Shown here piece by piece: positions 1 to 59,486 of a stretch of DNA of 64,000 nucleotides. The notes under the pieces are model-generated. The model had not been told where the DNA came from. It was given only the letters and a program-made list of their open reading frames with translations, and ran no database searches. Location of the stretch: assembly GCA_049852185.1 (NCBI GenBank), contig CP187540.1. One strand, given 5' to 3'. Every line of letters starts with the position of its first letter. Positions within the stretch are counted from its first letter, which is position 1. Origin of the DNA: Methanocaldococcus sp. 28A. GTDB lineage: Archaea; AGJL01; Methanococci; Methanococcales; Methanocaldococcaceae. A program made the translations under genes and the position numbers.

Positions 1-272
1 CATAAACTACTCCAATTGAACCCATATGGTTTTAGATAGTCAGGAGAATAGTTTATATTTATTTGAACACCTCTACATCCTCCATCTTCTTCCCCATCAC
101 TATATTTAATATCACCAACTTTGGGTATATTTTCAACAGTAATATTAAACTTAATTATACTACCATTTGTAATGACTTCATTAGGAACTAATTTAACATA
201 AATATTGTCTCCATAGGAGATATTTAAAAGAAAAATAAAAGCTAAAAGAGAAAACACCAAATATTTACTCAT
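1..272 (-). CDS. Secreted cohesin-domain protein, N-terminal part (runs off left edge)
   Basis: Not in ORF track. Manual translation from ATG at 272 (GGTGA RBS upstream): MSKYLVFSLLAFIFLLNISYG-DNIYVKLVPNEVITNGSIIKFNITVENIPKVGD...GGCRGVQININYSPDYLKP. Signal peptide, then the same pattern as scaffoldin cohesin 1 (VENIP...CGGFQTDIYYDP). Confidence 0.75.
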   Translation of the reverse strand, partial: MSKYLVFSLLAFIFLLNISYGDNIYVKLVPNEVITNGSIIKFNITVENIPKVGDIKYSDGEEDGGCRGVQININYSPDYLKPYGFNWSSL

Positions 273-278
273 TATTAA

Positions 279-842
279 TCACCTTTTTTTAACTATGTAT
301 GCTATGGCTCCGATTAATACAATTATAATTATTAAAATAGCTAATAAAGTGGAATTAAACGAAAATGTATTGTTTTTTTCAAGATTTTGAGAAGTATTTG
401 ATATATTTAACACATTTACTTCTAAAGTTTTGAGAGGAATTTTTATAGCATATCCCTCACTGTTCGACCCAACTGCCTTTACATCTATCCAAGCCTTTCC
501 GGGCTTTATAGCTTTTATTATTACATCTCCTACTATAAAATCTCCATTTTTTGGATTATTTAAAAAAGCATACTCAATAAATGCACTATTGTTATTATTT
601 TTTGTTAAGTTTAGATCTGCTCCTATATTATAGTTTATAACTTTTTCTATAACCAAATTATCTGAAACATAAATATTACACTGCAAACCACCACAATTTG
701 AAACATTCTTTGCATAAATTTCTACAGTAAATATCTCCCCTTTTTTTACTTCAGAAGGAGCTTTTACTAAGATATCTAATGCCATACAGGAGGGTAGTAT
801 AAAAAAAATCAATAGTGCTATATATTTTCTCATCTTATTCAT
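279..842 (-). CDS. Single cohesin-domain protein with C-terminal membrane anchor
   Basis: Signal peptide; cohesin-like beta pattern (VKKGEIFTVEIYAKNVSNCGGLQCNIY...GDFIVGDVIIKAIKPGKAWIDV); Asn/Thr linker; C-terminal TM helix and KKR tail. Confidence 0.75.
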   Translation of the reverse strand: MNKMRKYIALLIFFILPSCMALDILVKAPSEVKKGEIFTVEIYAKNVSNCGGLQCNIYVSDNLVIEKVINYNIGADLNLTKNNNNSAFIEYAFLNNPKNGDFIVGDVIIKAIKPGKAWIDVKAVGSNSEGYAIKIPLKTLEVNVLNISNTSQNLEKNNTFSFNSTLLAILIIIIVLIGAIAYIVKKR

Positions 843-1008
843 GATATCACCGAACTATAGTTTATTTTACTTATATTAAAAAATACCGTAAAATATATAT
901 AACTCTATATAGTAAACGACATTATGTTAACTTAAGATTTTTTTATACAATTTCACAATATCTTTAACATTACTAATAACAATACTAATATAAATATTAA
1001 ATGGTGGT
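843..1008. promoter_or_regulatory. Divergent promoter region of the cohesin/dockerin locus
   Basis: AT-rich gap between divergent genes; BRE/TATA-like CCGTAAAATATATATAA at about 886-902. Confidence 0.4.
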
Positions 1009-2373
1009 ATGATGCCGAAAAATATTAATATTATTGGGTATATATTAATTACTGTTTTCTTACTATTAGTTCCAGCATATGGAGAAAGCGTAGATGACTA
1101 TAAATATAGATTAGGTGACATCAACAAGGATGGCTCAGTAAATATCGCAGATGTCGTATACTTGTTTAAGCATTTAAATGATGTTCCAGTATATGATGGT
1201 GACTTAAACGCAGATGATAGCGTAGATATTGCAGATGTTGTGTATCTATTTGTTCATTTACAACAGTTGAGTGCACCAATTCACTACGCTAAACTATTAA
1301 AAATAACCTACTATGATAAAAATGGGAATATCGTTAACCCATACAATGGAGAGCCATACGCATATAAAATCGTTGTAGATGCCACAGGACAAAGATTCTT
1401 ACTAAAAAATGAAAGTGAACCAATTCCAGCATGGGCTGAAGGAAAATACGATAAAGTAATCAATGTTCCATTAAAAAGAGTAGTAGTAATGAGTTCCACC
1501 CACATAGCATTAATGGAACCACTAAACAATGATGGTTCAGTAATTGCTTCAGTAAAGGGAATAATGTGGGGAGGAAAATACAAGTGGTACTTTAAAGATA
1601 TAGAAGAGGGCTTAAATAATGGCTCAATAATTGATGTTGGTTCAACATACAATCCTAATTGGAACTTAATTCTTAATCTTTCACCACAAGTTATATTTGT
1701 CTATCCAGGATACAGTGGAGATGCAATAATTGAAAAATGTAAGGAATTAAACTTAACATATGTTGCAGATGCTGAATACTTAGAAGATTCCTACCTTGCA
1801 AGATGTGAATGGGTAAAGATGTTTGCAGCATTCTATAATAAAGAAGATGTAGCAAAAGAATACTTCACAAGAATCGAAAAGAACGCATTAAATGTTAAAA
1901 GAATTGTAAGTAAAAGTGATACAAGACCATTAGTAGCATGGGGTAAGAATTATCCTTCATTCGGAGGAACCTACGTCCCTAAAGGACAATCATACGTTGC
2001 TAAGGGAATCGAGTACTGTGGAGGAGACTATATATTCAAGGATATCCCAGGAACTGGCAGTGCATGCATAGATTATGAGACATTTGCAGAGAGGGCTAAA
2101 GATGCAGATGTGTGGGTAATACCATCAAGCACAACATGGTTAACAACATTTAAAGAAGATGATCCAGGGTATGAATACTTCAAAGCAGTTAAAAATGGGC
2201 GAGTATTCTGTATAAGTGATGATTACTGGCAACTTGGATTAATGAACACTGATCAAGTATTAGAAGATTTAGCAACAATAATTCATCCGGAACTATTCAA
2301 GGGAAGAACTACTCACTTCTTCCTAAAGTACTATCCGGATAATAATACAGCAGTGCCATATACTGCTAGTTAA
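1009..2373 (+). CDS. Dockerin-fused ABC transporter substrate-binding protein (Fe-siderophore/heme/cobalamin class)
   Basis: Signal peptide without lipobox Cys. Duplicated Ca-binding repeat GDINKDGSVNIADVVYLF / GDLNADDSVDIADVVYLF (1114-1260). Then binding-protein motifs VPLKRVVVMSST, EYLEDSYLARCEWVK, KAVKNGRVF, LEDLATIIHPE. Confidence 0.85.
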   Translation: MMPKNINIIGYILITVFLLLVPAYGESVDDYKYRLGDINKDGSVNIADVVYLFKHLNDVPVYDGDLNADDSVDIADVVYLFVHLQQLSAPIHYAKLLKITYYDKNGNIVNPYNGEPYAYKIVVDATGQRFLLKNESEPIPAWAEGKYDKVINVPLKRVVVMSSTHIALMEPLNNDGSVIASVKGIMWGGKYKWYFKDIEEGLNNGSIIDVGSTYNPNWNLILNLSPQVIFVYPGYSGDAIIEKCKELNLTYVADAEYLEDSYLARCEWVKMFAAFYNKEDVAKEYFTRIEKNALNVKRIVSKSDTRPLVAWGKNYPSFGGTYVPKGQSYVAKGIEYCGGDYIFKDIPGTGSACIDYETFAERAKDADVWVIPSSTTWLTTFKEDDPGYEYFKAVKNGRVFCISDDYWQLGLMNTDQVLEDLATIIHPELFKGRTTHFFLKYYPDNNTAVPYTAS

Positions 2374-2434
2374 GTGAAATTCCTTTTCCTTCTTTTTAAA
2401 CTTTTAAAAATAAAGTTTTTGAAGGTGACGATTG

Positions 2435-5400
2435 ATGAAATGGAAGATAATTATAATGTCAATAATGTCAATTTTAATGGCATTACTAATTGGTGTTAAT
2501 GGAGAAAACGTAACTGTAGAATTAATTCCTAGTGATGTAAATGTATATGTTGGGGATACCTTTAACTTAGATTTAATTGTCGAAAATATCCCAAATGGAA
2601 CAATATCTGATGGTTTTTATAACTACTCTGGATACTGTGGAGGATTCCAAACAGATATTTATTATGATCCATCTGTATTAAATATAAGCCAAAATGATGT
2701 GATTTTAAGTAATGTAAGTAATAGCGCGTCAATTAAAAATGTGGATGTCGAAAATGGAAAAATAAATATACAATTAGCATGGTTTAGTAATTATCCTTCT
2801 GGAAACTTTACAATCGCTACTTTGAAATTTAAAGCATTAAAGCCATCAAATGTTGTAGTTTCATTGAGTAATACTGTAATATCAAATAAAGATGGAAATT
2901 ACACATGGAAAGTTAGTAATAACAATTTAATTTTAAAAGATTCAAATGTAACGATATTATTTAAACCAATTGCCGATTTAATAGTGCCTAAACTATTAAA
3001 TGCTGAATATGGAGAGAACATAACTGTTCCAGTAACTATAGCTCCTAAAGAAAATGAAACTTTAAAATTAATCGAAGGGTATTTATCATACGATAAAAAT
3101 ATGTTAAAACCTGTAAATGTATCTTCAAATGTAGGGACAGTTTTCTTCAACAGTTCAAGTGGTTTCTTTAAAATAGATAATATAAATCAATCTAACAATT
3201 TCACAATTAACATTACCTACAATGTAATAAATGTTGGTAATACAACAGTAAAATTAGACAATGTCTATATGGAAGACACAAATGGAAGTTTTGTAAGTAA
3301 TATTTCGTCTAATGCTACTGAAATAGTAATTCCTGGACCAGATTTAGTTTGTGAAATAGTTCCAGAGCTTTTAAAAGCTTATGAAAACAATACTATTTCA
3401 GTAGTTGTAAAGAATATAGGAGAAAGAAATGTAACAAACAACTTCACTGTTACCTTGTACGCAGATACATTTGAAATAGGGTCATGTGTAGTTAACGGAT
3501 TAGATGTTGGTCAAACTAAGGAAGTAAACTTTACATTCATGCCTACCGAAGAGAAAAACTATACACTTGTTGCTGTAGTTGATACAAACAACAATGTAAA
3601 AGAGATTAATGAATATAATAATAAATATGTTTGTAATTTATATGCTGTAGAATTACCAATTAGTGTAAATTTAGAATCTTCAACAAATGTAACAAAAATA
3701 GAATATACCTTCGAAGTAAACCTTACATTAAACAATATAACTCCTGAAAGACCTGCAAAGGCTATACAAGGAGTTTTAACGTATAATCCAAATGTAGTAG
3801 AGTGTACAAACTTCACATTCTTGATAACGCCTTCTGAAGTAAATGGAACATTCTTAGAAAATATTACATACGAAAAAGGAAAGGTATTGTTCAAATTAAT
3901 GGATGGAAATATTAACCATTCAATAGTCATAGCTACTGCTAAATTCATAGGAATAGATGTAGGTAATTCAAATATTGAATTATCTGATCTTGTAGTTTCT
4001 GACATAAATGGATACAAGTTTAACAAATTATTGACTAATAACGTAAGTATCATTGTACAAGGGCCAAATCTTAAAATAGTTAATCTAAGTGTACCAAATC
4101 CTTCAAAATATAGAGTTCCAACAACAATAAATGTTACAATAACTAACAATGGACACCAAGATGTAAATAAATCATTTAATGTTGCATTGTATGCAGATAC
4201 AGAAGAAATTGGAGAAGTAACTGTTAATGGTCTAAATATTAGCCAAGTTAAAACAATAGTATTTAACTGGACTCCAGATGATACAAGGACATATACTATA
4301 GTAGCTGTTGTTGATCCAAATAATGTAATTAAAGAGGAAAATGAAAGTGATAACAAGGTTGTTAAAGAAGTAAAAGTTATTGAGATACCAGTATGGGTTT
4401 CAGTATATAACACAACCCCTGTAATAAATGGAACATTTAATGCTACAATAGAAGTTAAGGGTATTGAAGATAAAAGACCATGTGGTGGATATCAGGGAGT
4501 ATTGATTCTCAAAAACTTAAAAATTGAAAATATAGAACTTCTTGGGCCAAAATCCTGCACAAACTATACTATAAACAATAATGAGTTAATGTTTATGGGA
4601 TACAATTTCACAGAGACAGGTACATTTAAAATAGCAAATATAACCTTTAAAATTATTGATGAAAATAAAAACTATTCAGCAATATTAGAAAATATGGTAT
4701 TATCTGATGAAGATGGTTATAAATTTAAAATAGTATTTATTAATAACACAATATTGCCTGAATACTTACAGAATATCTTTAAAGGATTATGTATTGAATC
4801 AGGAGTTCTTGATAAGTTAGATATTGAAAATGCAAAATTAGAAACTGCGGGAAACATTACTTTAGTAATATTACCACTGAAAATAGGAAATGTTGGAGAT
4901 GAGTTAATAATTCCAAAAGTTAGTAATAATATAACAATTAATATTACAGATGACGTTATTACAAAAATAAATTCTACATTGACAGATGCAAAAATATTAG
5001 ATGAAATTACTAAATCGATAAATGATGAAGAAGAACTAAATAAAACATTAGATATGATATTAGAAAAAATAGAACCGATACTTTGCGAAGGATTTAACAT
5101 AACAAACAAAACTAAAGAAGAACCAAAGAAGATAAACAATAAATTAATAGCTACAATAAAGTTTAAGGCTGAAAACACATCAAACAAAGGATTTGCAATC
5201 GTTAGAATTCCAATTGGTGAATTAAAAGTTGAAAGTATTGTTGTAAATAACGGAACTACTAATATTACCCTAAAAGAAAATGATATTAACAGTAATGTAG
5301 GTTGGTATAGATATGTAGATACTGGAATTATTGAAATTACCTTAATAAATGACCCTGAAGTAAGTATAACTCTAGCTAAGACATTACCTGTAATTCAAAC

Positions 5401-5896
5401 TACTACAACTACAACTTATTACTATATTGGAGGGGGTGGAGGAGTATCTTCAATAGTAAAAATGTATCCAAATGTAGCACCAGACATAAAATCAGAAAAA
5501 ATAAGAGAATTTGTATATAGAGCAAAATTAATCGTCGGTTCAGAAATAGACTTAAACTTATCAGCAAAATGCCTTAAAAATGAATCAGAGTTAATAAAAC
5601 AACCAATAGATATAACCGAAGACTGCATTTTAATTGGAGGACCAGTAGCAAATCCATTAGTTAAAAAATACATGTGGGTATTCCCAGTAAAAGTAACTAA
5701 CGACTATCCAGGAAAACACAAAGGAGTTATAGAGAAACAAATAATAAACGGACACACAGTAATCTTATTAGCAGGTTCAGATAGATGGGGAACAAAAGCA
5801 GCTGTAGAATACTTCAAAACATTAGACGATATTCCATCAGAACCAATATTCGTAGAATGGATTAACGGAACTGCCATAAAGATTAATAAACCTTAA
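2435..5896 (+). CDS. Scaffoldin-like surface protein: 4 cohesin-like and 2 CARDB domains, C-terminal S-layer domain
   Basis: Signal peptide. Approximate aa: cohesin-like 26-176, 180-300, 409-543, 654-775; CARDB-like 302-405 and 545-650 (PDL/PNL...V.N.G...VVD..N.I/V.E.NE..N). Poly-Thr and Gly5 linker. S-layer C-terminal motifs ILIGGPVANPL and LLAGSDRWGTKAA. Many N-x-S/T sequons. Confidence 0.8.
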   Translation: MKWKIIIMSIMSILMALLIGVNGENVTVELIPSDVNVYVGDTFNLDLIVENIPNGTISDGFYNYSGYCGGFQTDIYYDPSVLNISQNDVILSNVSNSASIKNVDVENGKINIQLAWFSNYPSGNFTIATLKFKALKPSNVVVSLSNTVISNKDGNYTWKVSNNNLILKDSNVTILFKPIADLIVPKLLNAEYGENITVPVTIAPKENETLKLIEGYLSYDKNMLKPVNVSSNVGTVFFNSSSGFFKIDNINQSNNFTINITYNVINVGNTTVKLDNVYMEDTNGSFVSNISSNATEIVIPGPDLVCEIVPELLKAYENNTISVVVKNIGERNVTNNFTVTLYADTFEIGSCVVNGLDVGQTKEVNFTFMPTEEKNYTLVAVVDTNNNVKEINEYNNKYVCNLYAVELPISVNLESSTNVTKIEYTFEVNLTLNNITPERPAKAIQGVLTYNPNVVECTNFTFLITPSEVNGTFLENITYEKGKVLFKLMDGNINHSIVIATAKFIGIDVGNSNIELSDLVVSDINGYKFNKLLTNNVSIIVQGPNLKIVNLSVPNPSKYRVPTTINVTITNNGHQDVNKSFNVALYADTEEIGEVTVNGLNISQVKTIVFNWTPDDTRTYTIVAVVDPNNVIKEENESDNKVVKEVKVIEIPVWVSVYNTTPVINGTFNATIEVKGIEDKRPCGGYQGVLILKNLKIENIELLGPKSCTNYTINNNELMFMGYNFTETGTFKIANITFKIIDENKNYSAILENMVLSDEDGYKFKIVFINNTILPEYLQNIFKGLCIESGVLDKLDIENAKLETAGNITLVILPLKIGNVGDELIIPKVSNNITINITDDVITKINSTLTDAKILDEITKSINDEEELNKTLDMILEKIEPILCEGFNITNKTKEEPKKINNKLIATIKFKAENTSNKGFAIVRIPIGELKVESIVVNNGTTNITLKENDINSNVGWYRYVDTGIIEITLINDPEVSITLAKTLPVIQTTTTTTYYYIGGGGGVSSIVKMYPNVAPDIKSEKIREFVYRAKLIVGSEIDLNLSAKCLKNESELIKQPIDITEDCILIGGPVANPLVKKYMWVFPVKVTNDYPGKHKGVIEKQIINGHTVILLAGSDRWGTKAAVEYFKTLDDIPSEPIFVEWINGTAIKINKP

Positions 5897-6053
5897 ATAT
5901 CCCTTCCCATTTATTTTTTTATTTTATTTTGGTAATAATATTTTTAAATATTTTCATACTTTTAACAATATTTAATTAAAATTATCATAAATTATATATA
6001 TAAAATATGTTAAATTATTATCATATAACATTATTTGAAAAAAAATAATACGG

Positions 6054-7391
6054 ATGGATATCATGTTTAAGAAAATAGTATTATTAATAATGGCTATTTT
6101 ATTGACACCATTGGCATTTGGAGAAAACGTAGGAGATATAAATGGAGATGGGTCAATAAATATTGCAGATGTGGTATATCTATTTAAGCATCTTAATGAT
6201 ATCCCCTTAGATGTTGGAGATTTAAACTGTGATAACTCAGTTGATATTGCAGATGTTGTGTATCTATTTAACAACATTCAACATTGGAGTCAACCTGTAG
6301 TATTTGCTAAGAACTTTGAAATAGAATACTATGATGCTAATGGAATTCCTGTAAGTTATAATGATAATTGGTCATATGCAATTTTAACTACAAAATATGG
6401 AGATACTATTTATAATAAATACTGTATTGTAAAAGAGGGTGAAAAGCCTCCTAGTAATTTACCTTCAGATATAAAAGTTATATATGCGCCTGTAAAAAAA
6501 GTAGCAACATTAAGTGATTTCCAAGTAGCTATGCTTGAAGCGTTAGATGATGATAAAGTAAGAGAATCTATAAAGGGAGTATCCAAATACACATACATCA
6601 GAATAAAAGATTATGGGGTATTTTCTGATTTAAAACCATATGTTGATAGTGGAGATATTGTTCCAATAGGGTCTCCTTGGGGTACAATTGATAAAGAGGC
6701 ATTATTAAATATAAGTCCAGATATTGTGTTTATCCCATGGTCACATGGCTATTTAGTCCAAGATATTAATACAGTAAAAGATTTAGGACTTAATTATCTT
6801 GTAACGGTCGAATCAAATGAACCAACATTCCTTGGAAAGGCTGAATGGATAAAAGTGTATGCTACGTTATATAATTTATGCAGTAAAGGAAATGATTTCT
6901 TCCAAAAAGTTTGGAAAAAGAGAAATGAACTTTTGAGAAAAACATATGATGTTGACTATAGACCAAAAGTAGGTATACTTTATTGGTCACCATATTCAGG
7001 ACCTTGGGTATATTGTGGCCAAAACTGTTATGCAAAATTAGTTTCAGATTTTAGAGGAGATTATGCATTTAAAGATATTCCTGGAACTTCATATGCAAAT
7101 CTTGATGAAGAAACAACCTTAGAACACTTACAAGGATGTGACGTGCTTATATATATGAACTGGAATTCATTAAACGAGCCAATAAATACACTTGAAGATT
7201 TAAAAAAAGATGTACCACAATTAGATCCAATAATAGACCATGCAAAGAGAGTGTATGTATCTAAATATAACTATGGATATGATGGATATGTACATATGGA
7301 TTTATTAATGGAAGACTTCGCAAGAATGATTCATCCAGAATGCTTTGATGGTGGAGATAGTGAATTACATTACTTCAAAAAACTGAAATAA
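6054..7391 (+). CDS. Second dockerin-fused ABC substrate-binding protein
   Basis: Signal peptide without lipobox. Dockerin GDINGDGSINIADVVYLF / GDLNCDNSVDIADVVYLF (6132-6278). Motifs APVKKVATLS, EPTFLGKAEWIK, MEDFARMIHPE. Confidence 0.85.
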   Translation: MDIMFKKIVLLIMAILLTPLAFGENVGDINGDGSINIADVVYLFKHLNDIPLDVGDLNCDNSVDIADVVYLFNNIQHWSQPVVFAKNFEIEYYDANGIPVSYNDNWSYAILTTKYGDTIYNKYCIVKEGEKPPSNLPSDIKVIYAPVKKVATLSDFQVAMLEALDDDKVRESIKGVSKYTYIRIKDYGVFSDLKPYVDSGDIVPIGSPWGTIDKEALLNISPDIVFIPWSHGYLVQDINTVKDLGLNYLVTVESNEPTFLGKAEWIKVYATLYNLCSKGNDFFQKVWKKRNELLRKTYDVDYRPKVGILYWSPYSGPWVYCGQNCYAKLVSDFRGDYAFKDIPGTSYANLDEETTLEHLQGCDVLIYMNWNSLNEPINTLEDLKKDVPQLDPIIDHAKRVYVSKYNYGYDGYVHMDLLMEDFARMIHPECFDGGDSELHYFKKLK

Positions 7392-7490
7392 TCACACTAT
7401 TTTAATTTTGTCCTATTTTTATCTTCTAAATATTTAAATTTAAAGTTTATTAAAATATTTTTATATCTTATAAAGATAACTATAAATGAT

Positions 7491-7554
7491 TTATAGTTGT
7501 GTTCAAAATAAAATAAACTTTTATAAGGACAGATAGTTTTGCACACAACTATAA
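7491..7554. mobile_element. MITE-like element family A, short 64-bp form
   Basis: Terminal inverted repeats TTATAGTTGTG...CACAACTATAA. Confidence 0.75.
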
Positions 7555-7567
7555 ACTCTCATAGAAG

Positions 7568-8620
7568 GTGGTTATTTTGAACATTAGGATTAAAGCTCTA
7601 ACAGTATTTTTATTGTTAATGATATTTTCTTTGTCAATATTGAGTATAACTACTGGAACCATAAAAATAGAGCCAAAAAAATTTTATAACTATTTAATGG
7701 AAGGCACTACAGGTAATCCTATATATGACAAAATTATTGAAAAGTGCAGACTTCCAAGAACTGTTGGAGCAATATTTGCAGGAATGGGTTTAGCAGTAGC
7801 AGGCTTGTTGATGCAAAGTTTGTTTAGAAACCCTTTAGCTGACCCTTATCTAATAGGAGTCTCGAGTGGAGCTTCTTTAGGAGTAGCTCTTTATGTTTTT
7901 ACATCATTACTATTTAAGTTTGGTATACCTCAATCTATATGGGGATTTATAATATCTGCATACTTAGGTTCACTATTATCTATGTTCATTATTTTAGCCC
8001 TTGCAAAGAAGGTTAAACAAATTACCACACTTTTAATTGTTGGACTTATGATTGGCTATATCTCATCTGGGTTAATCACAATAGTTATTACATTTAGTGA
8101 TTTTCTTGGAGTTAATAACGATGTCTTGGCAAGTTTTATTATGTGGGGATATGGCTCTTTAAGTCAATTAACTATGAAGGAGTCAATAATTATGAGTATT
8201 TTTGTAGTTATATGTTGCTTTATAACTTACTTTTTGTCAAAATACCTTGATTCTTACTTACTTGGAGAAATGTATGCTAAGAGTGTTGGAGTTAATATAA
8301 AAAATTTGAGAATAGTTATAATTTTAATATCTTGTATGATTACAGCTAGTATTGTAGCATTTGCTGGACCAATAGGATTCGTTGGAATGGTTTGTCCAAT
8401 TGTTACAAGGTTGTTATGTGGAACATCAAAACATCTCTATGTAATTCCTAATGCTATGTTAATAGGTGCAATTTTTTTAATGATAGCGGATATTCTTGTA
8501 AGACCTGGAGTAATAATTCCAACAACAAGCACAGAACTACCTTTAATGTGTCCTTTATCAATTATTGGAGCTCCAATAGCCATAATGATATATATCAAAA
8601 GAAAAAAGATGGGGATATAA
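7568..8620 (+). CDS. FecCD/BtuC-family ABC permease
   Basis: [50 protein letters not shown]; multiple TM helices. Confidence 0.92.
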
Positions 8621-9636
8621 TGAGAAAAATATCCATAATTTTGCTAATGGTTTTGTTAATATTTTCTCTATTTGTTTTTGGAATATTTAAAGGAGGTAAT
8701 GCAAAGTCAATAACTATGGATGATGTAAAAAATTTTTTAATTTATGGGACTACTGGAGATGAGTTTAAAGATACTATTATATGGGATGTTAGAATTCCTC
8801 CGTTAATAACTGCTTTAATTGTTGGAGCAGTTCTATCAGTTTCTGGATTAAAGCTACAGACACTTTTTAGAAATATTTTAGCTTCTCCATACACAACTGG
8901 AATATCCACTGGAGTTATATTGGGAGTAGCGATTACTATATTCTTAGGTTTTTCATTTTCAAATTTTTTAGAGATTCCTGATTATGTTATAGGAGGGTGG
9001 ATAGGAGCAGCTATAGCTTTAATAATATTATTGGCTCTTGCTTCAAAAATTAAGGATGTTACTGGAGTTTTAATTTGTAGTATATTGTTTGGATACTTCT
9101 ACTATGGAATTGAGAGCTATTTAATAAGTTTTGCTAACAATATCCAGATTCAAGAATTTTGGATGTTTTTACAGGGAAGTTTTTCAGGAGTAAGCTGGGA
9201 TGATTTAAAATTACTTAGTATCTGCTCAATAATCTTTTTGATATCATCCTATATGCTTTCAAAGCATTTAAATGCCCTACTTTTTGGAGAAAAATATGCA
9301 AAAAGCTTTGGTTTAAGTATAAAATATGTGAGGTTATTAATTTTATTACTCTCGGGGTTTATTGTCGGGGTTGTAATTCCTTATGTAGGTTTAATCCCAT
9401 TTATTGGTTTGGCAGCGCCATATATTGCAAGAATTCTAATGAAAACTTCAGACCACAGATGGACTATTCCTGCATCTATGTTAATTGGGATGAATATTGC
9501 TTTGATTTGTTATTTAATATCAATAAAATTATTTGCTCCAAGGGTAGTTCCTGTAAAATCAATTTTAGATTTATTAGGTGGAGCATTAGTAGTATATTTA
9601 ATATACACATCTGAAAAAAAGGTTAAATTTGAATAA
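8620..9636 (+). CDS. FecCD/BtuC-family ABC permease, second subunit
   Basis: DVRIPP, LQTLFRNILASPY, LLFGEKYAKSFG. ATG at 8620 overlaps the upstream TAA. Confidence 0.9.
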   Translation: MRKISIILLMVLLIFSLFVFGIFKGGNAKSITMDDVKNFLIYGTTGDEFKDTIIWDVRIPPLITALIVGAVLSVSGLKLQTLFRNILASPYTTGISTGVILGVAITIFLGFSFSNFLEIPDYVIGGWIGAAIALIILLALASKIKDVTGVLICSILFGYFYYGIESYLISFANNIQIQEFWMFLQGSFSGVSWDDLKLLSICSIIFLISSYMLSKHLNALLFGEKYAKSFGLSIKYVRLLILLLSGFIVGVVIPYVGLIPFIGLAAPYIARILMKTSDHRWTIPASMLIGMNIALICYLISIKLFAPRVVPVKSILDLLGGALVVYLIYTSEKKVKFE

Positions 9637-9644
9637 TAAATCTC

Positions 9645-11072
<1,428 letters not shown>

Positions 11073-11118
11073 TTACACCAAAAATGTTTTAGATTTTAAT
11101 ATTTTTAAAATTATATCT

Positions 11119-11178
11119 AATGGGACTTTTGCAAATCATTTTTTCATTGACACATATATAAAGTGCGGAAGTTCTATT
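11119..11178. repeat. Palindromic repeat family B, degenerate copy
   Basis: AATGGGACTTTTGCA...TGCGGAAGTTCTATT resembles the consensus ends AATAGGACTTTCGCA / TGCGAAAGTCCTATT. Confidence 0.55.
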
Positions 11179-11270
11179 ATAATTACACAAGAAATTTTAA
11201 AACAAATATTTAAAATTTTCCTTTAAAATTTAAATTCCAATAATATCCTCATTTTTTTGTTATCTATCTT

Positions 11271-11334
11271 TTATAGTTATGTGCAAAACTATCTGTCCTT
11301 ATAAAAGTTTATTTTATTTTGAACACAACTATAA
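11271..11334. mobile_element. MITE-like element family A, short 64-bp form, inverted relative to 7491-7554
   Basis: 63/64 identical to the reverse complement of 7491-7554. Confidence 0.8.
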
Positions 11335-11474
11335 TTTATATTAAAATAGAACAATTTTAGCAAAAAAGAATTTAATATGTATAAAAAATCCATAATTAAA
11401 CTTTCTTATATTTTTCTATACTGAAGGTCTAATTTTAATAAAGAAAAAGAAATTTTATGCTATTTTATACAAAT

Positions 11475-11907
11475 GTTTCCACACGAATCGGTCTTATTTT
11501 AATTTTAATTGGTATATTGAATATATTAAATAAAAGTGATGTAAATAAAGTTTCCATACCGAATCGGTCTTATTTTAATTATTCTTTTTATAGTTGCTTA
11601 TTATGACAGTTCCATCGTTTCCATACCGAATCGGTCTTATTTTAATACTCAACTGAAACACTTGCTAATCACACTTATAATGTTTCCATACCGAATCGGT
11701 CTTATTTTAATTATTAATAAATGTAATACTTTTTTTAAAATTTTTTGGTTTCCATACCGAATCGGTCTTATTTTAATAAATAATTAAACTTATTGAAAAT
11801 GGAATCAACGAAGTTTCCATACCGAATCGGTCTTATTTTAATTATATGTGAAAAACCTTTTATTTGTAATCCAATAAGTTTCCATACCGAATCGGTCTTA
11901 TTTTAAT
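11475..11907 (-). CRISPR. CRISPR array 1: 7 repeats, 6 spacers
   Basis: 30-bp repeat GTTTCCATACCGAATCGGTCTTATTTTAAT at 11550, 11617, 11682, 11748, 11813, 11878; degenerate copy at 11475; a more eroded one near 11411. Spacers 35-46 bp. Leader on the right, so crRNA repeat is ATTAAAATAAGACCGATTCGGTATGGAAAC. Confidence 0.97.
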
Positions 11908-12270
11908 AGGAGGCATTTTTTGAATTAAACGAAATTAAGCATTTTTAAATCTTTATTTTATAGGGGTTATATTACGACCCCCCAATTACCTGATTTCTTT
12001 ATATACCCTAACTCATATAAATACTTTACGGTATTGTATTAATTAGAACAATAAAAACCCCTTAACTAAAAAATCAAATTATCTATCGGGGAAATCTAAA
12101 TATAAAAATAATTATCTAAAATCTCCTAAAAATCTTATTAATTTAATACATCTAAATAAGTAAAATATTAAAAATAAGCTACCCTTAGAAATTATCTAAA
12201 AATCTTTAAAATCAAAAAATAACCATTTAAAAAGATTTAAATTAAAAATAAAAAACTTTCAGCGTGATAA
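11908..12270 (-). promoter_or_regulatory. CRISPR leader 1
   Basis: AT-rich, near-identical to 47595-47958; BRE/TATA-like CCGTAAAGTATTTATAT on the minus strand near 12015-12031. Confidence 0.85.
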
Positions 12271-12295
12271 ATATAAACCCATTGACAAACTTAAA

Positions 12296-12422
12296 TTATA
12301 GTTGTGTGCGAATGAAAACAAAACTATCTTAAAATAAAATAAGGTATTAACGAATGCCTTCCTTATGGAAGGTGTTCAATATTTCCTTTTTAAAGTTTAT
12401 TTCATTTTGCACACAACTATAA
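12296..12422. mobile_element. MITE-like element family A, long form
   Basis: TTATAGTTGTGTGCGAA...TTTGCACACAACTATAA with internal hairpin GCCTTCCTTATGGAAGGT. Confidence 0.8.
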
Positions 12423-12492
12423 AATATAGAATGGTTACATTAAAATAACCCATCTTATTTTATTTATTACAAAAAATAGTGCTGGTGATAAA

Positions 12493-14139
12493 ATGCCAAC
12501 AATTAATGTAAAAAAAGCTGATTTGGAGAGATTGGTAAATATGCCCTTAGAAGATGAGTTTATTGAGGAAAAATTTCCAATGATTGGTGTTGAAGTTGAA
12601 GGAATCTTTGAAGAAGATGGAGAAAAGGTTATTCAATTCTCAATAAACCCAAATAGACCAGATTATTTAAGTGCTGAAGGTTTGGCAAGAGGATTTAGAG
12701 GATTTATAGGGATAGAAACAGGATTAAAAAAATATGATATTGAGAGTTCAGATGTAAAGCTATATGTTGAAAATGTTGAAACAAGGCCCTATATAGCAAT
12801 GGCTTTAGTTAAAGGGGTTATTATTGATGATTATGTTTTAGAGAGTATAATTAATCTTCAAGAGAAATTACACTGGGTTATGGGAAGAGATAGGAAAAAA
12901 GTGGCAATAGGAATTCACGATGCGGATAAAGTTAAGCCTCCATTCTACTATAGGGAAGTTGGTAAAGAGGATATTAAATTTGTCCCATTGAACGCTGAAG
13001 AAGAAATGACTCCAAGAGAGATTTTAGAAAAACATGAAAAAGGAATAAAATATGCCCATTTGATTAAAGATGATAAGTTTCCAATAATATTGGATAGTGA
13101 AGATAATGTTTTATCTATGCCACCAATAATCAATGGAGAATTAACAAGAGTTACAACATCTACAAGAAATCTATTGATTGATGTTACTGGAACTGATAGG
13201 TATGCTGTTGAGAAGACATTAAATATTATTGTCACAGCATTGGCAGAGAGAAAATATGCCAAAATACATGCTGTTGAAGTAATTAAAAATAATGAAAAAA
13301 CTGTATATCCAGATTTAAAAGAAGATGTTTTAGAAACAACTCCAGATTATATAAACAAAGTTTTAGGAACTAATTTAACTCCTGGAGCTATAATAAATTA
13401 CTTAAGAAGATGTAGATTAGATGCTCAATTTGTAGATAATAAAATAAAGGTTTTCATTCCAGCTTATAGAGTTGATATATTTGGAGAGATTGATATTACT
13501 GAAGAAGTAGCTATCGCTTACGGTTATAATAAATTCTCTGGAGAATATCCAATTATTGGAACTATTGGTGAGCTTGATAAATTAGAAAAGAAGTGTGATT
13601 TTATAAGAGAAATTATGATAGGATTTGGGTTTTATGAGGTTATAAACTTAATGCTATCAAATGATGAGATTTTATTTAAAAAGATGAGGATTGAAGATAA
13701 CAACTATATAGAAGTTTTAAAACCAGCATCAATTGAACATAGAATAGTTAGAAAAAGCATTCTACCATTATTAATGGAAACTTTGAGGATAAATAAGCAT
13801 AAAGAGTTACCTCAAAAAATATTTGAGATTGGAGATTGTGTAGTTATTGATGAAAATGCTGAAACAAAATCAAGAGTCGTCAAAAAAATAGCTGGAGTTA
13901 TTGTAGATAATGAAACAAACTTTAATGAGATAAAGAGCTATGTTGAAGGATTGCTAAGAGAGCTAAAAATTGAGTATGAGCTTGATAATTTTGAACATCC
14001 TTCATTTATTAAAGGTAGATGTGCTAAAATTTTAAAAGATGGAAAAATTATTGGCTACTTTGGAGAAATTCATCCAGAAGTTATTACAAACTTTGAATTA
14101 GAGTTTCCAGTTGTAGGATTTGAGTTAGAAATTAAATAA
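12493..14139 (+). CDS. pheT: Phenylalanine-tRNA ligase beta subunit
   Basis: [39 protein letters not shown]. Confidence 0.96.
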
Positions 14140-14205
14140 AACTTTTGTAATATTATAATATAAATTAAGTTGCTTGTACTTACAAAAAATTTTTTAAGTG
14201 AAAAT

Positions 14206-14760
14206 ATGCTTAAAAAACTCCTATATAAAATTGAAAAATTAAGGAACAATGAATTAGAAGGATTTGAAATTTTAAAAGAGCATATACAAAGCTTAGATGA
14301 GTTTCAATATCAACAGATAGTTGAAAGATTAAAGCTTCAAATTGAGATTGTTGAAAAATATAACCCAAAGGTTAGGCCTGCAATAGACCCAGTAGTTTCT
14401 ACAGAACTTGGAATTTATAGAAGGTTGGATGATTTTGAGATAGGAAAACTTTTAGATTACCCAGAATGTTGTATAAAATCTTTTGTTGAGGATGTTAGAA
14501 TATCAATAGACAGAGAACATTTAAAAGAAGTTGAAGAAATGAAAGATGAGTTAAAAAATGAAGGAATTTATGCTATTGTCTTACCTTCTGGTTTTATTCC
14601 TTGCAGTTTGAAATGTGAAGAAGCAATAAAAAGAGGATATATTGGATATTTAAATAAAGAAGAGTTTAATAAAATATTGGAGCTTGAGAAAGAACTTAAA
14701 GAAAAAATTAAGCATTGGCACTTTGGATATGACGAATATTATGAAAAAATAATTTTATAA
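14206..14760 (+). CDS. Conserved archaeal protein (DUF483-like)
   Basis: GKLLDYPECCIKSF and GFIPCSLKC motifs; ATG at 14206 preferred over upstream TTG. Confidence 0.7.
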   Translation: MLKKLLYKIEKLRNNELEGFEILKEHIQSLDEFQYQQIVERLKLQIEIVEKYNPKVRPAIDPVVSTELGIYRRLDDFEIGKLLDYPECCIKSFVEDVRISIDREHLKEVEEMKDELKNEGIYAIVLPSGFIPCSLKCEEAIKRGYIGYLNKEEFNKILELEKELKEKIKHWHFGYDEYYEKIIL

Positions 14761-23733: not shown

Positions 23734-23762
23734 ATATTTTTTTATTAATATTTTATTTTCTT

Positions 23763-23834
23763 GCCCCGGTGGGGTAGCGGATATCCTTTGACACTGCGGA
23801 TGTCAAGACCCGGGTTCGAATCCCGGCCGGGGCA
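23763..23834 (+). tRNA. tRNA-Arg(GCG)
   Basis: GCCCCGG/CCGGGGC acceptor, anticodon arm TGACA-CTGCGGA-TGTCA, TTCGAAT T-loop, A20; no encoded CCA. Confidence 0.9.
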
Positions 23835-23845
23835 TATTTTTTATT

Positions 23846-35682: not shown

Positions 35683-35794
35683 TGGTGCCGAGGGAGGGAT
35701 TCGAACCCTCGACCTCCCGGTTTCCCAGGACCCAGGCAAAAAGCCTGGGATATCCGTATGAGCCGGGCGCTATAACCAGCTAAGCCACCTCGGC
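35683..35794 (-). tRNA. tRNA-Met(CAT) with about 35-nt intron at 37/38
   Basis: GCCGAGG...CCCGG-CTCATA-[CGGATATCCCAGGCTTTTTGCCTGGGTCCTGGGAA]-ACCGGG...TTCGAAT...CCTCGGCACCA. Confidence 0.93.
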
Positions 35795-35885: not shown

Positions 35886-35973
35886 GCGGGGGTCGCCAAG
35901 CCAGGTCAAAGGCGCCAGATTGAGGGTCTGGTCCCGTAGGGGTTCGCGGGTTCAAATCCCGTCCCCCGCACCA
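35886..35973 (+). tRNA. tRNA-Leu(GAG)
   Basis: GCGGGGG acceptor, CCAGA-TTGAGGG-TCTGG, long variable arm, encoded CCA. Confidence 0.95.
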
Positions 35974-46537: not shown

Positions 46538-47594
46538 GTTTCCATACCGAATCGGTCTTATTTTAATGCAACAGATTGGAACAGGGGCATTATTAACAAC
46601 ACTGTTTTCATACCGAATCGGTCTTATTTTAATGCAAGTCAGAAATGAATACTGCAGGAGATGTGGAAAATGTATAATAGTTTCCATACCGAACCGGTCT
46701 TATTTTAATTTATGTTCAAATTTGGTTGATAGATTATAGTAGAAAGAGTTTCCATACCGAACCGGTCTTATTTTAATTTTTTATGTTGTAAAAACCATAA
46801 AAATAAAAATAAAGTTTCCATACCGAACCGGTCTTATTTTAATTTTTTATGTTGTAAAAACCATAAAAATAAAAATAAAGTTTCCATACCGAACCGGTCT
46901 TATTTTAATCTTACGAACATAAGCAATTAATATTAAATATTACAAGTTTCCATACCGAACCGGTCTTATTTTAATGTAGGAAAGAATATTATAGAATATG
47001 AAAGCTCATGGTTATGGTTTTCATACCGAACCGGTCTTATTTTAATTTTTGAGAATTGAATAGCTCTGGTAGATATGTAATAAGGTTTTCATACCGAACC
47101 GGTCTTATTTTAATAAAAGCGTTATAATATAAAAGTTTTTAAGATAAAAAAAGTTTTCATACCGAACCGGTCTTATTTTAATCAAAAGATACCGAAAACA
47201 ATAAAGAATATAAATATAGTTTCAGGTTTTCATACCGAACCGGTCTTATTTTAATATAGATAATGATGAGGGGGTTAGGGAATTATTATTGTTTTCATAC
47301 CGAACCGGTCTTATTTTAATCAAATTTATTAACTTTATTACTTCAACAGATTTCCGGTTTTCATACCGAACCGGTCTTATTTTAATAATATTAACGGGTT
47401 GATTGCCTTATATGTGGCATACGAAATAAGTTTTCATACCGAACCGGTCTTATTTTAATGAGGTGATAGGGCATGAAGACTGTAAACTATATATACGAGT
47501 TTTCATACCGAACCGGTCTTATTTTAATGATAAAATGAGTGATGAGGTTAAACAGATTAAAGAAGTTTTCATACCGAACCGGTCTTATTTTAAT
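46538..47594 (-). CRISPR. CRISPR array 2: 16 repeats, 15 spacers
   Basis: Repeat GTTT(C/T)CATACCGAA(T/C)CGGTCTTATTTTAAT from 46538 to 47565; spacers 35-46 bp; leader on the right. Confidence 0.98.
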
Positions 47595-59394: not shown

Positions 59395-59486
59395 GGCGCG
59401 GGGTACCGGGCTTGGTAGCCCGGGGCGGACTTCAGATCCGTCGAGGGCGAATGCCCTCGGGGTTCGATTCCCCCCCTGCGCCGCCA
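59395..59486 (+). tRNA. selC: tRNA-Sec(TCA)
   Basis: 9-bp acceptor (GGCGCGGGG/CCCTGCGCC), 4-bp T stem, long D stem, anticodon loop CTTCAGA, long variable arm, G discriminator plus CCA. Confidence 0.96.

Follow-up and report, generated by a model that had tools for sequence, protein, structure and literature searches.

Textbooks present cohesin-dockerin pairs as components of the machines that degrade polysaccharides; their role outside cellulosomes has been a long-standing question since the first archaeal sightings. A compact case is provided by Methanocaldococcus sp. 28A (assembly GCA_049852185.1). In the 64,000-nucleotide stretch of contig CP187540.1 analyzed here (hereafter the window; genome positions C1:1344001-1408000), the first 9.6 kb (window 1-9636) consists of two divergent gene groups, on the plus and the minus strand, in which genes for cohesins and dockerins stand together with those of an ATP-binding cassette (ABC) importer. 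What is such a set of modules for in an organism that encodes McrA and is thus a methanogen, as an earlier note on this DNA had stated? Profile scans revealed no glycoside hydrolase in the locus, where that note had reported none, or in the genome, and no dockerin proteins besides the two substrate-binding proteins (SBPs) of the importer. We consider it rather probable that cohesin-dockerin pairing replaces the lipid anchoring of both binding proteins of this one FecCD/BtuC-class importer. The computed observations that bear on this reading are the domain content of the locus, the exclusivity of the modules within the genome, synteny and co-occurrence among relatives, and the swap of dockerin for lipobox in the binding proteins.

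Both binding proteins have a signal peptide, a duplicated N-terminal dockerin and a Peripla_BP_2 domain, and in this respect the description in the earlier note was accurate. SBP1 (454 amino acids (aa); window 1009-2373, plus strand) matched Peripla_BP_2 in Pfam with an E-value of 9.2e-23, and SBP2 (445 aa; 6054-7391, plus strand) with an E-value of 5.5e-12. The dockerin occupies approximately residues 35-90 of SBP1 (nucleotides 1111-1278) and 26-80 of SBP2 (nucleotides 6129-6293), and its 12-residue Ca-loop/helix repeats start at residues 37 and 65 and at residues 28 and 56, respectively; the Ca-ligand positions within the loops are those that we take to be usual for dockerins. Against Dockerin_1 (PF00404; Pfam cut-off, 22.9 bits), SBP2 scored 28.5 bits, above the cut-off, and SBP1 scored 17.0 bits in hmmscan, below it, and 30.5 bits when the two repeats were summed in the genome scan. 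An alignment of 27 dockerin modules from 16 genomes has 19 invariant columns, and little or no variation is seen in either Ca loop or in the hydrophobic helix that comes after it. The 11 best PDB matches of the family profile are all solved dockerins (E-values from 1e-5 to 2e-3), with alignments to 5lxv_B and 2ccl_B, and dockerin chains in the PDB were also reached by single-sequence searches. SBP1 and SBP2 of this genome are 36% identical over their full length and 74% identical in the dockerins alone. Furthermore, in five of 11 genomes the two dockerins are 91-100% identical and nearer to each other than to any orthologue, which fits a partner common to both.

The scaffold protein of 1154 aa is encoded at 2432-5896 on the plus strand, with a likely ATG start at 2435. 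The earlier note had described a protein with four cohesins and two CARDB domains that terminates in an S-layer domain, and this architecture was borne out by Pfam, lineage-specific hidden Markov models (HMMs) and hhalign. After the signal peptide come Coh1 (2507-2959), Coh2 (2960-3334), a CARDB module (3335-3637), Coh3 (3638-4069), a second CARDB module (4070-4375), Coh4 (4376-4777), a 218-aa module of no known family (4778-5431) and the S_layer_C module (5432-5893). The Pfam matches were CARDB twice (1.1e-34), S_layer_C (3.4e-8) and Cohesin (PF00963; 37.2 bits, with a cut-off of 24.1), the last in two stretches, or three at a relaxed threshold. Over its last 87 aa, the scaffold shares 33% identity with the C-terminal end of the 560-aa S-layer protein of this genome (S_layer_N plus S_layer_C); apart from these two, one further protein in the genome carries S_layer_C. 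N-glycosylation sequons number 5.1 per 100 aa in the scaffold and 3.2-6.1 among scaffold proteins, compared with 0.4-1.3 in the binding proteins, the ATPase and aspartate kinase, and such dense sequons fit the nature of surface glycoproteins. No direct repeats of at least 40 bases were found within the scaffold gene, and thus its modules would be old duplications. An atlas search with the 218-aa middle module gave nothing usable (0.75).

The remaining cohesin proteins are smaller and are predicted to be anchored in the membrane. The 187-aa protein (279-842, minus strand) has a signal peptide, a cohesin-like domain and a C-terminal transmembrane (TM) helix with a KKR tail. It is the TM-anchored single cohesin recognized in the earlier note, and this identification agrees with BLAST (2e-8 to the scaffold cohesin modules, the copy in this genome having no Pfam match), with hhalign and with Pfam Cohesin matches in two of 13 orthologues. 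The same note had taken the frame at 3-272 (minus strand) for a separate secreted cohesin protein; it is indeed cohesin-like, but it represents the first 90 codons of the gene for a membrane-anchored 277-aa protein (C1:1343439-1344272) that runs off the window start. The N-terminal part of this protein matched scaffold Coh1 in BLAST (2.3e-9), and the full-length protein has a signal peptide and a cohesin-like domain, followed in an alignment of 12 orthologues by a stalk that is conserved and by a TM helix at the C-terminus. The locus extends about 3.8 kb beyond the window start, where the rest of the 277-aa gene, a 677-aa multi-cohesin gene and the gene for the ABC ATPase are found. The 677-aa protein contains three cohesin-like modules, a PKD domain (4.4e-12), one module of no known family and a C-terminal TM helix. 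It has no Pfam Cohesin match in this genome, and frames of 667-726 aa in relatives exceed the cut-off.

Module families were built from orthologues and compared profile to profile with hhalign, with the scaffold Coh1 family as reference. Within the scaffold, Coh3, Coh4 and Coh2 matched it with probabilities of 99.2%, 98.1% and 96.8%; the 187 and 277 families matched with 98.5% and 98.4%, and modules a and c of the 677-aa protein with 99.9% and 95.2%. Module b was weaker (77%) and matched module c only, and the 277 and 187 families matched each other with 95.7%. The CARDB, 218-aa middle and S_layer_C modules and module d of the 677-aa protein have no relation to cohesins in the same comparison.

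Are these modules peculiar to the importer? The whole genome was scanned in all six frames with the lineage-specific HMMs, over open frames of at least 40 aa. Dockerins were found solely in SBP1 and SBP2, with nothing else in the genome even at E-values up to 10, and cohesins solely in the four locus proteins, with nine modules in total. In addition, the only Peripla_BP_2 genes (two of two) and FecCD genes (two of two) of the genome are those of the locus. These results support the view that dockerins, cohesins and transporter form one closed system. The HMM scans that the earlier note had proposed as a check matched the elements listed in it, with E-values far past chance.

The comparison was extended to 40 genomes of the class, including this one. 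With the lineage profiles, cohesins were detected in 28 and dockerins in 27 genomes; 26 genomes have both modules, 11 have neither, one has a dockerin only (G017) and two have cohesins only (G029 and G030). The latter two assemblies are 81% and 64% complete, and their binding-protein gene is cut at contig ends. A survey using Pfam alone (dockerin in 20 and cohesin in 23 of the 40 genomes, nine discordant) was rejected, as the lineage profiles and fetched loci showed that its discordances are mostly false negatives; all eight of the discordant genomes that were fetched or re-searched have both modules. Among the 20 fetched loci, the cassette was recognized in both families of the class, also in six such genomes, and its synteny as a whole is conserved. 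The earlier note had named the failure of dockerin-binding-protein genes to co-occur with cohesin genes in other genomes as a result that would speak against its interpretation, and had suggested a gene-neighbourhood survey; in the genomes surveyed, the two do co-occur. As judged by eye, 54 of the 59 dockerin matches in the 40 genomes lie in or beside binding-protein frames, and the other five are short fragments. Between 2 and 5 cohesins are present in the scaffold, depending on the species, and complete loci have 7-10 cohesin modules. One genome, G006, keeps only the 187-aa cohesin, together with both dockerin binding proteins and the ATPase, a pattern which suggests that the core function is to tether to the membrane.

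The strongest evidence that the dockerin would act as a tether comes from the anchors of orthologous binding proteins. An SBP1 orthologue with a dockerin is present in 25 genomes, and all 25 have cohesins. Six genomes encode an SBP1 orthologue that is 67-72% identical and can be aligned only from residue 84-92, and all six are without cohesins. Here, and in the corresponding database proteins, the place of the dockerin is taken by a signal peptide with a terminal G-C and a linker rich in N, S and T, and the Archaeoglobus-type homologues likewise have a G-C lipobox and a linker there. The signal peptides of SBP1 and SBP2 have no cysteine and are thus not lipobox signals as the motif is defined in PMC12462473. 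Three of the cohesin-less genomes have the same five transporter genes; each of the two binding proteins carries a lipobox, there are again two permeases, and the ATPase has the same C-terminal extension. When the anchor type was mapped onto a maximum-likelihood tree of 56 binding-protein cores, three changes were needed; the well-supported branches force at least two, and none of 200 bootstrap trees needs only one. The dockerin-bearing SBP1 proteins make one clade (82/100), and the lipobox SBP2 proteins are nested among dockerin forms (100/94). The idea that the swap followed from losing lipidation was considered and rejected, as lipobox proteins persist in the genome, which still encodes at least four convincing ones.

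The cassette may also have moved between lineages. In G039, a member of the second family (f2), the cassette is 84% identical to that of this genus and aspartate kinase is 79% identical, compared with 80-83% and 94-96%, respectively, for genomes of the same genus, and the G039 cassette groups with this genus in the tree (compared with the G001 and G014 loci). This hints at lateral transfer of the cassette.

In the mechanism that we propose, the binding proteins would be exported by a signal peptide without the lipobox cysteine, and the N-terminal Ca-loop dockerin would then plug into one of the approximately nine cohesins encoded alongside. The 187- and 277-aa single-cohesin proteins and the 677-aa three-cohesin protein would be held in the membrane by their C-terminal helices and would keep the binding proteins close enough to the heterodimeric permease to reach it. 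The four-cohesin scaffold has a terminal module in common with the S-layer protein; the multivalent scaffolds would hold a larger pool of binding proteins within the S-layer or beneath it, and the ATPase would drive the import of a chelate-type ligand. From the sequences we infer the physical binding, its Ca dependence, the position of the scaffold, the access of the tethered protein to the permease and the substrate. Retention of the binding proteins in the envelope by cohesin-dockerin pairing appears well supported by comparative genomics. A scavenging array on the S-layer, as the earlier note envisaged, is one plausible elaboration of such tethering. The interpretation of that note as a whole is partly supported by the present sequence comparisons.

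Several observations weigh against tethering as the explanation. Related genomes are not independent, and there will have been fewer independent events than the co-occurrence counts suggest. The genome of G017 is complete and encodes an intact dockerin protein of the SBP2 type (gene 10053-11324 of C1:431000-450999) beside the ATPase, with the FecCD permeases sited elsewhere; no cohesins were detected genome-wide at E-values up to 10, and its locus open reading frames (ORFs) gave only noise against all of the cohesin HMMs. Public sources assign such proteins to many strains of one species. A dockerin can thus persist without these cohesins. The cohesin identity of the 187- and 277-aa proteins depends on the profile-profile comparison, since neither matches Pfam Cohesin here and only two of 13 and none of 12 members of their families do; the best four of the five PDB matches of the 187 family profile are cohesins, at weak E-values (0.04-0.13). 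The 187-type protein of the other family of the class is without a full TM helix. The dockerin abuts the binding-protein core almost directly, whereas the lipobox orthologues have a linker of 25-45 aa, and docking on the permease would then need flexible cohesin carriers or exchange between cohesins. Finally, anchoring alone gives no account of about nine cohesins for two cargo proteins.

Other explanations were also considered. One of them is that the scaffolds act as a scavenging antenna, a cohesin-based counterpart of the bindosome, that displays numerous binding proteins at the S-layer or outside it to capture a scarce ligand and hand it inward. The 7-10 modules per complete locus, the valency that differs between species, the CARDB spacers and dense sequons, and the scaffold end in common with the S-layer protein would all suit such a structure, and in Sulfolobus, according to the review PMC3387779, binding proteins are assembled into a surface structure. 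However, a single membrane cohesin with no scaffold is what G006 retains, a binding protein fixed to the S-layer could not dock on the permease unless it was swapped between cohesins, and none of the results indicates which face of the S-layer the scaffold is on. The lipobox swap moreover argues that the ancestral job that was replaced is plain membrane tethering, and we regard the antenna as the main function as unlikely, though it deserves serious consideration. The excess of cohesins over cargo could also be accommodated if the tethered binding proteins had no part in import and instead sensed, stored or sequestered a metal chelate or tetrapyrrole on the cell surface; lipid-anchored homologues of binding proteins are used for chemotaxis (PMC3387779), and in three genomes the locus has CobN-type chelatase genes as neighbours (see below). 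This is very improbable in our opinion, as the two permeases and the ATPase are conserved in the cassette, the locus is the sole FecCD/Peripla_BP_2 system of the genome, and no transducer gene was seen in the locus.

The orphan dockerin of G017 raises the more basic question of whether the modules pair at all. The EF-hand-like repeat might be a Ca-dependent stabilizing or S-layer-binding module, and the cohesin-like, CARDB and PKD proteins might be adhesins or other envelope proteins that merely share the operon region; CARDB and PKD are generic surface modules, and the 187 and 277 families lie mostly below the Pfam Cohesin cut-off. Pairing, on the other hand, is favored by the confinement of all dockerins and cohesins of the genome to this locus, by the pattern of 26, 11, one and two among the 40 genomes, by the homogenization of the two dockerins within genomes and by the match of the dockerin profile to solved dockerins that bind cohesins. 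Above all, where the cohesins are lost the dockerins are lost along with them, with lipoboxes in their place. An absence of pairing is therefore improbable, and the replacement of a lipid anchor by cohesin-dockerin pairing remains our preferred explanation.

How does this arrangement compare with known systems? The locus resembles the clostridial cellulosome in its duplicated Ca-loop dockerins, the profile of which matches solved cellulosomal ones, and in its multi-cohesin scaffold, separate cell-anchored cohesin proteins, terminal surface module and species-variable valency. It differs in that the cargo consists of two transporter binding proteins and not enzymes, that the dockerins are N-terminal, that the Pfam scans of the locus proteins revealed no glycoside hydrolase or carbohydrate-binding module, and that the anchors are C-terminal TM helices and the archaeal S_layer_C rather than SLH. 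The entire system, furthermore, is one locus with only two dockerins. Judged by these sequence features it is not a cellulosome, though it appears to follow the same assembly logic. The Archaeoglobus fulgidus pair is likewise a non-cellulosomal archaeal cohesin and dockerin; we know of no transporter component among its cargo.

The closest precedent is found in anaerobic methanotrophic (ANME) archaea, in which common dockerin proteins are binding proteins of ABC transporters (NikA/OppA and TroA) and proteins with up to five cohesins, including S-layer-linked members, have been described (PMC9012536, published in 2022). In both cases archaeal dockerins fused to transporter binding proteins accompany scaffoldin-like proteins, and in both the evidence is genomic. 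Those archaea belong to another phylum and the binding-protein classes named there are different; Peripla_BP_2 fusions may also be present among them. Their genomes contain tens to over a hundred dockerin and cohesin domains spread across the genome according to a table in PMC5244752, in which these domains are treated as possible adhesion devices, and neither a self-contained transporter locus nor a lipobox swap is reported in the accessible parts of the two papers. The ANME binding proteins are thus a partial genomic precedent for the locus. PMC9012536 also states that archaeal cohesins and dockerins have been verified to bind each other strongly and specifically (with reference to Bayer 1999 and Haimovitz 2008) and that the archaea known earlier were without multi-cohesin scaffoldins (citing Peer 2009). 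In the searchable full-text literature, neither the Methanococcales cassette nor any tested dockerin-anchored binding protein was found to be described, and nothing pertinent stands in PMC9765008 or PMC8542988; an earlier supplementary listing is possible. The statement in the earlier note that no characterized system of this kind is known therefore holds for that literature, but in view of the ANME genomes the idea is not wholly new.

As to the anchoring of archaeal binding proteins, C-terminal TM segments, lipoboxes, archaeosortase signals and the prepilin-type signals of the bindosome are known (PMC3387779); the words dockerin and cohesin do not occur in that review of archaeal secreted proteins. 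Each of these anchors, and the Sulfolobus bindosome, addresses the same problem as the locus, that is, holding the binding protein of an ABC importer on a cell without an outer membrane. The locus would do so with a non-covalent protein-protein plug in place of a covalent lipid or a TM helix, and the bindosome is alike in concept only, no pilus-type assembly genes having been seen among the locus ORFs. A search of 1.84 billion representative sequences with the dockerin profile gave 4061 matches at E-values of 1e-3 or below. Pfam was run on 89 of the best 150 (those of 250-700 aa; 61 were excluded by length), and Dockerin_1 was found in 86 and Peripla_BP_2 in four of the 89. Other binding-protein families were not among the 25 commonest domains in these 89, and such fusions may be present among lower-ranked matches. 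Public annotation conceals the dockerin of these binding proteins, as only six of 39 database proteins with the dockerin region have a dockerin domain in their precomputed annotation, and the name given is just ABC transporter substrate-binding protein.

The importer itself is a type II ABC set, kept in relatives, of two FecCD permeases, two Peripla_BP_2 proteins and an ABC ATPase. The permeases, whose FecCD/BtuC type had been recognized in the earlier note, are encoded on the plus strand at 7568-8620 (FecCD in Pfam, 4e-72) and 8620-9636 (9.6e-66); the likely ATG start of the second, at 8620, overlaps the stop of the first, and in the ORF list a GTG at 8548 is given as its first codon. The ATPase (381 aa; within C1:1340208-1343421; ABC_tran, 7.2e-30), with a 130-aa C-terminal extension, lies just upstream of the window start, and with it the transporter is complete. 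In its FecCD permeases, Peripla_BP_2 proteins and ABC ATPase the set resembles BtuCD-F, FhuBCD and FecBCDE, from which it differs in having two permease genes, two binding proteins that are 36% identical and an ATPase with the extension. We found no close characterized orthologue of the importer. The best NCBIfam rows for the permeases (BtuC, FhuB and FecC/D) are all below the curated cut-offs, the binding-protein matches are far below theirs (IsdE, 20.9 bits against 298.65; FhuD, 17.2 against 252), and the best PDB matches of the binding proteins are weak (an Fe-citrate binder with an E-value of 3e-4 and a siderophore binder with 2e-3).

Genes of the CobN/Mg-chelatase family adjoin the transporter genes in G006, G020 and G007 (L064:4792-8493, L065:525-4400 and L069:16427-19990), and may be a weak pointer to tetrapyrrole or cobalt/nickel chemistry, that is, a hint at the class of ligand. 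In G005 (C1:790000-809999), which is without cohesins, the ATPase and one permease are each in two frames (7360-8494 and 11916-12963), which could be gene decay or an assembly error, and a NifH-family gene and membrane proteins with a 'Gate' domain adjoin the transporter genes (L068:14541-16328). The extension of the ATPase is conserved in relatives with and without cohesins and has a Rossmann-like glycine motif; it gave a weak Pfam YjeF_N match (E-value 0.0013) and an atlas lead to the MJ0874 family (0.79) that is below the trust level.

Other cohesin or dockerin proteins were encountered in the surveyed relatives. In G026, a second and different cohesin-dockerin set is present (C1:484000-503999, genes 4239-14651). 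It comprises a 1751-aa protein rich in CARDB and PKD with a terminal duplicated dockerin of another type (Pfam, 4e-9), 501- and 731-aa proteins with cohesin modules, and a 413-aa protein with a terminal S_layer_C of the scaffold type. A 506-aa secreted protein in G025 and G037 (L031:6966-8486 and L030:7034-8554) has a weak C-terminal Pfam dockerin (E-value about 2e-4) and does not match the binding-protein-type dockerin profile.

In the intergenic region between the two divergent gene groups, a conserved ACCGTAA-N-ATATATA motif (880-901, plus strand) was noticed in a by-eye comparison of 13 loci. It is present in most of them and duplicated in G014, and it looks like a B recognition element (BRE)/TATA promoter facing the binding-protein gene. 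Elsewhere in the window, there are two small arrays of clustered regularly interspaced short palindromic repeats (CRISPR), at 11550-11907 and 46538-46975, with six Rfam CRISPR-DR13 matches each; the first is located just past the aspartate kinase gene that bounds the locus. A selenocysteine tRNA gene is found at 59395-59486 (72.5 bits) and three further tRNA genes at 23762-23835, 35683-35794 and 35886-35973. At the tRNA at 35.7 kb, the ends given by Rfam and ARAGORN differ, and the gene may have an intron.

What would tethering of this kind mean for these methanogens? The value of the locus is that the cargo is known and its few candidate partners are encoded side by side, and that the lipid-anchored transporter of sister species is a natural control. 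Going further, we give an even chance to the idea that the cassette is a natural 'bindosome' built from cellulosome parts, a mobile element of the Methanococcales that, with one to ten cohesins, sets the number of binding proteins at the membrane and in the S-layer and that, with the dockerins, has been exchanged with the lipobox in both directions, more than once. No cohesin-dockerin system dedicated to the import of nutrients would have been known before it, and such loci would be a source of cohesin-dockerin pairs that work at the temperatures of hydrothermal vents. Cohesin-dockerin pairing would be a new anchoring mechanism for the binding proteins of archaeal ABC importers, to be added to the ways already known in archaea, and it would tie nutrient uptake to the architecture of the S-layer.

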